Shown here one piece after another: positions 1 through 59,186 of a stretch of DNA of 64,000 bases; position 1 is the stretch's first letter, and the number at the start of each line of letters is the position of its first letter. The stretch lies in assembly GCF_054482525.1 (NCBI RefSeq), contig NZ_CM137006.1, one strand, 5' to 3'. The position numbers were made by a program, and so were the translations under genes. The notes below the pieces were generated by a model. That model did not search any database and was not told the DNA's origin. It worked only from the letters and a program-made list of their open reading frames with translations.

Positions 1-452
1 ATGGTTTCTTTGCCGCTGGCAAATGAACCGACGTTGAAGGTCTCCTGGAAGTCTGCTTCGGTCAGATCGTGGAAAGACGGATCCAGATCGGCCACTTTAT
101 CTTGCTGCCACAGTCCCAGCGGATCGAGATTCGCATGCTGGTGACCACGGAAGCGGTATGCGTTAATGAGCTGCAGGACTTTAACCTGCTTCACATTGGT
201 GTCAGGGTCGGAGATCGTTGAAGAGTAACGTGAAGCGTCTTTCGCCAGGCGGCGGAAATATTCACGCGTTTGAGAGTGGAATTGATCCGGTTTGACTCCC
301 GTACCAGGTAACTGCTGGAACGTCGAACGCCAGTTAGCGTCAACCGAGTCAGGATCGGTTAAGAAGTCTTCATAGAGCTGTTCTATCCAGCTCTGGTTTG
401 CGCCAGAGAGGTAAGAAGAGTCCAACCAGGCTTTCAAAGCGCTGTTCTGCAT
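1..452 (-). CDS. sucA: 2-oxoglutarate dehydrogenase E1 component, N-terminal part (runs off the window edge)
   Basis: Reverse-complement translation from the ATG at 450-452 gives MQNSALKAWLDSSYLSGANQSWIEQLYEDF..., the SucA N-terminus; the position downstream of sdhB fits the sdh-suc operon. Confidence 0.8.
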   Translation of the reverse strand, partial: MQNSALKAWLDSSYLSGANQSWIEQLYEDFLTDPDSVDANWRSTFQQLPGTGVKPDQFHSQTREYFRRLAKDASRYSSTISDPDTNVKQVKVLQLINAYRFRGHQHANLDPLGLWQQDKVADLDPSFHDLTEADFQETFNVGSFASGKET

Positions 453-569
453 CGTGATCCCTTAAGCATCTTTTTTATGCTTACTTCGCCGTGGATACTA
501 CCACGCACAGTGATGTGCGTGCCGGGGTTCACTTGCGAGCTCTTGTCTACGTAGTGGCTCGCGAAGGAA

Positions 570-608
570 CCTTTAAAAACTGTCTTAGTGTCAGGGGCAG
601 TTTTTAAA
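570..608. repeat. Perfect 12-bp inverted repeat (ctttaaaaactg ... cagtttttaaag) in the sdhB-sucA intergenic region; possible internal terminator or RNA-processing structure
   Basis: Read directly from the sequence; coordinates approximate. Confidence 0.4.
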
Positions 609-651
609 GATTTCCTGAATAGCCGGGGATTTCCCCGGCATCAACATTTAA

Positions 652-24963: not shown

Positions 24964-24996
24964 AAAAAAACCGCCAGCGTTTCCGCTGGCGGTTTT
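24964..24996. terminator. Hairpin terminator downstream of ybfA
   Basis: ccgccagcg...cgctggcgg stem flanked by A/T runs. Confidence 0.5.
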
Positions 24997-33413: not shown

Positions 33414-33421
33414 TCATAAGT

Positions 33422-33455
33422 AAAAAAGGGCGATCTTCCGACCGCCCTTTTTTAT
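33422..33455. terminator. Bidirectional hairpin terminator (pgm / kdpE)
   Basis: aaaaagggcg...cgccctttttt. Confidence 0.6.
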
Positions 33456-50881: not shown

Positions 50882-50890
50882 GAAATGCGA

Positions 50891-50920
50891 AACAGCCCCG
50901 GTGAAATCCGGGGCTGTTTC
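50891..50920 (+). terminator. asnB rho-independent terminator
   Basis: aacagccccggtgaaatccggggctgttt. Confidence 0.6.
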
Positions 50921-51260: not shown

Positions 51261-51337
51261 GGCTACGTAGCTCAGTTGGTTAGAGCACATCACTCATAAT
51301 GATGGGGTCACAGGTTCGAATCCCGTCGTAGCCACCA
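51261..51337 (+). tRNA. metT: tRNA-Met (elongator, anticodon CAU)
   Basis: 77-nt GGCUACGUAGCUCAGUUGGUUAGAGCACAUCACUCAUAAUGAUGGGGUCACAGGUUCGAAUCCCGUCGUAGCCACCA with encoded CCA. Confidence 0.9.
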
Positions 51338-51345
51338 TCTTTTTT

Positions 51346-51430
51346 GCGGGAGTGGCGAAATTGGTAGACGCACCAGATTTAGGTTCTGGCGCCGCAAGGT
51401 GTGCGAGTTCAAGTCTCGCCTCCCGCACCA
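51346..51430 (+). tRNA. leuW: tRNA-Leu (anticodon UAG)
   Basis: 85-nt class II tRNA with long variable arm, ending CACCA. Confidence 0.85.
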
Positions 51431-51453
51431 TTCACCAGAAAGCGTTGTACGGA

Positions 51454-51528
51454 TGGGGTATCGCCAAGCGGTAAGGCACCGGTTTTTGATACCGGCATTC
51501 CCTGGTTCGAATCCAGGTACCCCAGCCA
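51454..51528 (+). tRNA. glnU: tRNA-Gln (anticodon UUG)
   Basis: 75-nt UGGGGUAUCGCCAAGCGGUAAGGCACCGGUUUUUGAUACCGG...CCAGCCA. Confidence 0.9.
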
Positions 51529-51562
51529 TCTTCTTCGAGTAAGCGGTTCACCGCCCGGTTAT

Positions 51563-51637
51563 TGGGGTATCGCCAAGCGGTAAGGCACCGGTTTTTGATA
51601 CCGGCATTCCCTGGTTCGAATCCAGGTACCCCAGCCA
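51563..51637 (+). tRNA. glnW: tRNA-Gln (anticodon UUG)
   Basis: Identical copy of the preceding tRNA-Gln. Confidence 0.9.
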
Positions 51638-51652
51638 TCGAAGAAACAATCT

Positions 51653-51729
51653 GGCTACGTAGCTCAGTTGGTTAGAGCACATCACTCATAATGATGGGGT
51701 CACAGGTTCGAATCCCGTCGTAGCCACCA
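51653..51729 (+). tRNA. metU: tRNA-Met (elongator, anticodon CAU)
   Basis: Identical copy of the first tRNA-Met. Confidence 0.9.
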
Positions 51730-51777
51730 AATTCTGAATGTGTCGAATATGTTCGGCAAATTCAAAAACCAATTTGT

Positions 51778-51852
51778 TGGGGTATCGCCAAGCGGTAAGG
51801 CACCGGATTCTGATTCCGGCATTCCGAGGTTCGAATCCTCGTACCCCAGCCA
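51778..51852 (+). tRNA. glnV: tRNA-Gln (anticodon CUG)
   Basis: 75-nt; anticodon loop GGAUUCUGAUUCC. Confidence 0.9.
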
Positions 51853-51889
51853 ATTTATTCAAGACGCTTACCTTGTAAGTGCACCCAGT

Positions 51890-51964
51890 TGGGGTATCGC
51901 CAAGCGGTAAGGCACCGGATTCTGATTCCGGCATTCCGAGGTTCGAATCCTCGTACCCCAGCCA
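51890..51964 (+). tRNA. glnX: tRNA-Gln (anticodon CUG)
   Basis: Identical copy of the preceding CUG tRNA-Gln. Confidence 0.9.
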
Positions 51965-59054: not shown

Positions 59055-59069
59055 TGTGAATGATGCGCT

Positions 59070-59100
59070 GGCCTGCAAAATTGCATCAATTTTGCAGGCC
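59070..59100. repeat. Perfect 13-bp-arm inverted repeat (ggcctgcaaaatt-gcatc-aattttgcaggcc) between convergent lnt and the rhomboid gene
   Basis: Read from the sequence; no adjacent U-tract. Confidence 0.5.
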
Positions 59101-59186
59101 AGATAAACCGTTCACACCGCATCCGGTATCAACAAAACGTACTTCCTCATTGAGCTGTGGGGCGTGATTATCATGCCCCTTTTTTC

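Follow-up and report, generated by a model that had tools for sequence, protein, structure and literature searches.

The spacer between sdhB and sucA in Escherichia coli encodes an RNA hairpin, hereafter designated hairpin A, that opens a structured leader of about 165 nt preceding sucA and is its best-conserved helix. Comparative analysis across the Enterobacterales shows hairpin A to be a selected, conserved, cis-acting RNA structure at a fixed position relative to the gene. It is a well-supported example of an element of a known type, a leader or intercistronic processing stem; what is new here is an order-wide covarying helix, absent from Rfam, that stands beside an interchangeable terminator/REP module.

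The window analysed here is a stretch of 64,000 nt of E. coli DNA (contig NZ_CM137006.1) in which the sdh-suc cluster occupies the minus strand. The sdhB-sucA spacer is 199 nt long and lies inside the sdhCDAB-sucABCD transcript. A sequence-only reading of this DNA had described a perfect 12-bp inverted repeat with a 15-nt loop, which was borne out by reading the sequence and by an exact search; the arms are CTTTAAAAACTG at 571-582 and CAGTTTTTAAAG at 598-609, separated by 15 nt (583-597), and the positions first given for the repeat (570-608) were one base off. Its placement in the sdhB-sucA spacer of the sdhCDAB-sucABCD transcript stood, with the correction that the genes run on the minus strand. 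The window contains seven distinct perfect 12-bp inverted repeats with a loop of 3-30 nt, whereas 200 dinucleotide shuffles gave a mean of 0.055 per window and a maximum of one; with so few expected, the repeat is not a product of chance. The elements of the spacer and its borders are listed below in the direction of transcription.

1368 to 652, minus strand: sdhB, with its stop codon TAA at 654-652.
622 to 639, minus strand: G+C-rich hairpin GCCGGGGAAAUCCCCGGC, just after the sdhB stop codon.
563 to 617, minus strand: match to the covariance model described below (64.2 bits, E 7e-16), the only one in the 64-kb window.
566 to 615, minus strand: hairpin A in full, 17 bp with a bulged A611, from G615-C566 to G598-C582, as given by the fold, the consensus fold and the pair counts.
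598 to 609, minus strand, read 609 to 598: 5' arm of the perfect repeat in the transcript, CUUUAAAAACUG.
583 to 597, minus strand: 15-nt loop, CCCCUGACACUAAGA, variable between genera.
571 to 582, minus strand: 3' arm of the perfect repeat, CAGUUUUUAAAG.
535 to 562, minus strand: hairpin B (GCGAGC...GCUCGC), directly 3' of hairpin A and abutting its stem.
502 to 521, minus strand: hairpin C, CACGCACA-UCAC-UGUGCGUG.
485 to 494, minus strand: conserved CCACGGCGAA, the inferred target of the GlnZ sRNA.
482 to 464, minus strand: hairpin D (AAGCAU...AUGCUU).
463 to 458, minus strand: Shine-Dalgarno sequence of sucA, AAGGGA.
452 to 450, minus strand: start codon of sucA, ATG.

The position of the GlnZ site was deduced by combining a site at -166 with a 127-nt spacer deletion, both as reported for Salmonella.

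RNA structure prediction, proposed with the sequence-only reading as a check, returned a stable stem of 17 bp with one bulged A, in which the transcribed strand pairs as GGAAAUCUUUAAAAACUG / CAGUUUUUAAAGGUUCC (window 615 to 566). The predicted fold has a free energy of -18.4 kcal/mol (z = -4.83), and none of 200 shuffled sequences was as stable. The stem is composed of 5 G-C, 1 G-U and 11 A-U pairs, with 38% G+C for the hairpin. The spacer as a whole is also more structured than its shuffled versions (z = -5.7), and its fold comprises, from 5' to 3', the G+C-rich hairpin, hairpin A, and then the shorter hairpins B, C and D upstream of the ribosome-binding site. Of the helices in the minimum free energy (MFE) fold of this spacer, which is devoid of REP sequences, hairpin A is the longest. 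Its strand was taken from gene orientation, and a comparison of G-U with C-A pairs as a test of strand discriminates only weakly (403 versus 391 of 432 cells).

Conservation was assessed through an SdhB search limited to one genome per species, which yielded 80 loci; the sdhB-sucA spacer was delimited in nearly every one. In 27 Enterobacterales species, E. coli and 26 others sampled, the spacer holds a hairpin in the same position, with the same GGUUCC end. The genera concerned include Citrobacter, Pluralibacter, Pseudocitrobacter, Enterobacter, Phytobacter, Mangrovibacter, a Klebsiella sp. and Superficieibacter, as well as Yersinia, Serratia, Rahnella, Erwinia, Pantoea, Rosenbergiella, Pectobacterium, Brenneria, Photorhabdus, Xenorhabdus and Providencia. 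Long loops were trimmed for the alignment of these 27 species, and E. albertii was excluded from it, its hairpin being identical to that of E. coli. In the resulting alignment 90.6% of cells are paired, and 10 of the 17 pairs display double-sided changes; no shuffle out of 500 reached any of the observed measures, and sliding the partner by 1-3 columns lowers pairing to 31-63%. RNAalifold independently recovered the same helix, which is the dominant consensus helix of the whole aligned leader. In Erwinia psidii and Rosenbergiella, the distal arm sequences are unrelated and pairing is nevertheless kept.

The loop ranges in length from 4 nt in Providencia to about 135 nt, and insertions found there in other genera prolong the stem coaxially. 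An ERIC-like palindromic element occupies this position in Phytobacter and Enterobacter, prolonging the helix; such ERIC-like insertions of approximately 75 to 135 nt were seen to produce a long imperfect duplex (loci L010, 2300-2490; L009; L007, 2258-2390; L011). The two arms evolve differently, with UUUUUAAAGGUUCCUU, which corresponds to the 3' arm and its flank (window 566-582), nearly invariant across the 27 species, and a 5' arm that drifts and compensates. The 3' arm and the GGUUCCUU that follows constitute the most invariant stretch of the element, an invariance that exceeds what pairing needs and hints at an added, sequence-specific role. The helix is always found directly after the terminator/REP module and before hairpin B, and conservation of the leader extends order-wide down to the ribosome-binding site.

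A covariance model was built from the 27-species alignment and run on the window and on the untrimmed spacers. Among the loci searched, its matches below E = 0.01 are confined to Enterobacterales sdhB-sucA spacers, with no match in Vibrio, Aeromonas, Shewanella, Alteromonas and similar genera, nor in Acerihabitans, whose spacer is 68 nt long. In Acerihabitans arboris (locus L036, 2218-2285), hairpins A to C are absent, and CCACGGCGAA, hairpin D and the Shine-Dalgarno sequence are kept; with the proximal module alone retained, the leader has two separable parts.

Compensatory changes combined with loops of 4 to about 135 nt indicate that selection acts on RNA pairing, and not on a protein-binding DNA site or a promoter. 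The repeat could otherwise be taken as a DNA-level site, being either part of a weak internal suc promoter or an IHF site repressing that promoter, an explanation we regard as very unlikely. According to Cunningham and Guest, the suc promoter is said to be repressed by IHF and to be partly sigma-38 dependent. The A+T-rich composition of the repeat would suit such a site, and binding of Nac to the sucA promoter is cited in PMC9731577. Yet no sigma-70-like site was detected on either strand of positions 300-900, and the IHF consensus WATCAANNNNTTR, searched with at most two mismatches, occurs only at 639-653, outside the repeat; a promoter or IHF site on the repeat was rejected on these scans. 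Arms that stay complementary when unrelated in sequence, at spacings of 4 to about 135 nt, are also unlike a protein-binding palindrome.

That hairpin A intrinsically terminates or attenuates transcription between sdhB and sucA is extremely improbable and can be regarded as close to refuted; the sequence-only reading had proposed it as a candidate internal terminator. The hairpin does lie in the right spacer, and an internal terminator together with a secondary promoter was reported in this operon (Conway et al. 2014, PMC4161252). Like Rho-independent terminators, it is a stem-loop between two cistrons, but it lacks their G+C-rich stem, their U-tract and a mapped 3' end. The AU-rich stem has G-C pairs at only 5 of 17 positions, encloses a 15-nt loop instead of a short one, and is followed by GGUUCCUUCGCG / UUCGCGAGCC, with no U-tract; a terminator scan of positions 300-900 returned no terminator-like site. 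In K-12, hairpin A corresponds to NC_000913.3 758543-758592, and the comparison with mapped 3' ends that had been proposed for this site went against termination, the Term-seq tables of Adams et al. 2021 containing no 3' end in 758543-758600. The 3' ends they report are at 758531, after the third REP, and at 758707, in the sucA start codon. The latter position (window 450-452) is the second base of that codon, following closely on hairpin D and the Shine-Dalgarno sequence, and may reflect either a stable leader fragment or an end protected by ribosomes or Hfq. The separate upstream G+C-rich hairpin or REP array is a better fit to a terminator role, and in this spacer the terminator-like or 3'-end-protecting element is the hairpin at 622-639.

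Within E. coli, the 67-nt hairpin A region was found at an identity of at least 95% in 5424 of 5426 complete genomes, with a median of one copy per genome. The segment from the sdhB stop codon to hairpin A (window 610-651) is polymorphic: 1760 of the 5426 genomes have the G+C-rich hairpin form (622-639), and REP arrays stand in for it in about two thirds. The REP-bearing strains examined carry REP/BIME arrays of 1.5 to 4.5 units in its place, with spacer lengths of 300 nt (K-12), 349, 384 and 550 nt. These elements are palindromic, share the spacer with hairpin A in those genomes, and form RNA hairpins shaping 3' ends. Hairpin A differs from them in being A+T-rich, single-copy per genome and conserved in position across the order; its membership in the REP/BIME family was rejected on its median of one copy, its G+C content and its lack of sequence similarity to the adjacent K-12 REPs.

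Other variation was noted along the E. coli leader. In strain B2.3 (locus L003, 150-563), a deletion at a REP junction has removed the 5' arm and most of the loop, leaving the 3' arm; this strain appears to be one of only two among the 5426 genomes without an intact hairpin A, and its natural loss of the 5' arm implies that the helix is dispensable for viability. Hairpin B exists in a compensatory variant, GCGGAC...GUCCGC, with another loop, in E. coli UPEC 26-1, B2.3 and E. albertii, and the loop of hairpin C also differs among strains carrying the two versions of hairpin B (loci L002, L003 and L063 versus the window).

RNase III processing of the sdhB-sucA spacer is known since 1998, when Cunningham and Guest reportedly located RNase III processing sites in the sdhCDAB-sucABCD intergenic region, and the earlier suggestion that the repeat might be an RNase processing structure uncoupling sdh from suc expression restates known work. 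That suggestion matches what PMC9731577 gives for this spacer, with three RNase III sites upstream of the GlnZ site, recognition by RNase III of a target with relatively long stem-loops, and an rnc14 mutant in which SucA, and not SucB, is lower. A preprint (bioRxiv 10.1101/2022.04.01.486790) further states that GlnZ repression of SucA needs RNase III. In Gordon et al. 2017 (PMC5371410), the sdh-suc spacer serves as a positive control, with an rnc/WT RNA-seq peak at NC_000913.3 758515, a position with zero coverage in the wild type and covered in the rnc mutant. Judging from this literature on the spacer, hairpin A most plausibly belongs to the zone processed by RNase III and may itself be a substrate, or one of several. 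It resembles the RNase III stems of E. coli mRNAs, such as the sdhCDAB-sucABCD sites, in belonging to the same spacer and transcript, in being double-stranded and near substrate length, and in lying upstream of CCACGGCGAA, the inferred GlnZ site, with an rnc phenotype that is SucA-specific. It differs from them in its 17 bp compared with about 22 bp, and in that the one published coordinate found, 758515, falls outside the stem, 28 nt upstream of its base, within the third K-12 REP.

The explanation that we tentatively favour is that hairpin A is a conserved double-stranded processing and boundary element, with RNase III cutting in or next to the helix. As a double-strand-specific element placed immediately after the leaky terminator hairpin or REP array with which the sdh half closes, it would present a segment of approximately 17-20 bp, much longer where the loop carries a palindromic insertion. 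Cleavage by RNase III in or beside the helix would set the sdhCDAB and sucABCD segments apart; exonucleases would shorten the upstream product as far as the G+C-rich hairpin or REP, and the rest of the leader, comprising hairpins B-D, the GlnZ site and the ribosome-binding site, would stay with the downstream product. Cleavage and trimming would jointly set SucA output independently of Sdh. Loops of 4 to about 135 nt and coaxial growth of the stem are compatible with an enzyme recognising double-stranded RNA, and not with a spaced dimeric DNA site. Classical RNase III substrates have about 22 bp, or two helical turns, of which at least about 11 bp flank the cut on one side. Hairpin A has 17 bp and one bulge, with 11 pairs above the invariant Y-G and C-G pairs, and its being short for a classical two-turn substrate argues against this explanation. 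So do the excess invariance of the 3' arm and GGUUCCUU, for which the processing model gives no account, and the loss of the 5' arm in strain B2.3.

With the 758515 peak located in a REP, the K-12 cuts could fall in REP/BIME duplexes, which are absent from the spacer of the window. Hairpin A might then be an uncut structural boundary or stabiliser, with RNase III acting in the REP/BIME duplexes or in other helices, a possibility that we consider doubtful but of some weight. Such a boundary could act as an insulator that keeps the folding of the terminator/REP module apart from that of the sucA leader, or as a stem shielding the processed sucABCD mRNA from 5'-end-dependent decay. The published peak inside the REP, and not at hairpin A, is consistent with this role, as is the extensive cleavage of REP-containing RNA by RNase III in vitro described in the same preprint (bioRxiv 10.1101/2022.04.01.486790). 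The invariable location of the helix between the terminator/REP module and hairpin B would also suit a boundary, and covariation, which attests to selected pairing, is silent on what reads the helix. However, the spacer is free of REP in the 1760 E. coli genomes mentioned above and in most other sampled genera, and hairpin A is kept there, so that REP cleavage is not the conserved mechanism. No 5' end is mapped at the base of hairpin A in the literature found, which also weighs against such a role.

A further alternative is that hairpin A and the invariant UUUUUAAAGGUUCCUU constitute a ligand- or protein-responsive leader, in which a trans-acting factor (protein, sRNA or metabolite) tunes the translation or stability of sucA. 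We know of no such factor, and this alternative is unlikely. It would account for a nearly invariant 3' arm and flank facing a 5' arm that drifts with compensation, and for the order-wide conservation of the whole leader to the ribosome-binding site. By inspection, GGUUCCUU is moreover complementary to the sucA Shine-Dalgarno sequence AAGGGAUC, with two G-U pairs, and conserved sucA leaders of a separate kind, to which it would be analogous in position, exist in further proteobacterial orders and were proposed as cis-regulators (PMC1950547, PMC2864571). On the other hand, the loop is unconserved and tolerates insertions of more than 100 nt, and accessibility of the Shine-Dalgarno sequence with and without the 5' arm follows no consistent trend across 15 species: removal of the arm raises it in the E. 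coli group, lowers it in Brenneria and Rahnella, and leaves it unchanged elsewhere. An anti-anti-Shine-Dalgarno switch, in which GGUUCCUU would pair with AAGGGAUC once the 5' arm is removed, was accordingly inconsistent in partition-function modelling of these 15 species and was rejected.

The leader also bears no similarity to the Rfam models sucA, sucA-II and sucC, another point against a responsive leader of that kind. None of the three gave a match at E<=10 in positions 1-1500 of the window, no Rfam model of any kind matched the sdhB-sucA spacer there or, at E<=1, in 10 related loci, and hairpin A is absent from Rfam. Those motifs, namely sucA of the Burkholderiales, sucA-II (RF01758) of the Pseudomonadales and sucC (RF01759), are structured RNAs located directly upstream of 2-oxoglutarate dehydrogenase or succinyl-CoA synthetase genes, and are each limited to one order or class (PMC1950547, PMC2864571), two features that the hairpin A leader shares; it differs from them in consisting of simple hairpins arranged one after another within a polycistronic spacer. 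A more speculative and fairly unlikely extension is that hairpin A, UUUUUAAAGGUUCCUU and hairpins B-D form a cis-regulatory sucA leader that spans the Enterobacterales and is so far uncatalogued; it would count as a third sucA motif, independent of the others, and would switch the ratio of 2-oxoglutarate dehydrogenase to succinate dehydrogenase by regulated opening or by RNase III cleavage on a signal.

Carbon and nitrogen metabolism branch at 2-oxoglutarate, and post-transcriptional control by RNase III, the GlnZ sRNA and Hfq converges on the sucA cistron. Of the whole spacer, only hairpin A persists throughout the sampled Enterobacterales, next to a terminator/REP module that is freely swapped, and it offers a concrete, mutable target for understanding how the sdh and suc halves of a single 10-kb mRNA are uncoupled. 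It also shows which K-12 findings should extend to the REP-less third of E. coli genomes and to the sampled genera. The gain is incremental, since RNase III processing of this spacer has been on record for so long.

Several additional features were observed in the window. A 32-codon ORF with a GUG start (532 to 434, minus strand) begins in the conserved GUGAACC and runs past the sucA start in another reading frame. No obvious Shine-Dalgarno sequence precedes it, and other genera do not keep its length, as judged by inspection of the aligned leaders. In the MFE fold, GUGAACC pairs with GGGAUCAC, which belongs to the ribosome-binding site of sucA. Rfam matches in the window that exceed the gathering score are limited to a cluster of seven tRNA genes (51261-51961, plus strand) and the sroC sRNA (62423-62585, plus strand). 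Six more perfect inverted repeats of at least 12 bp with short loops, at 16386-16419, 18006-18036, 24967-24996, 33421-33454, 50889-50920 and 59068-59102, are probably terminators.
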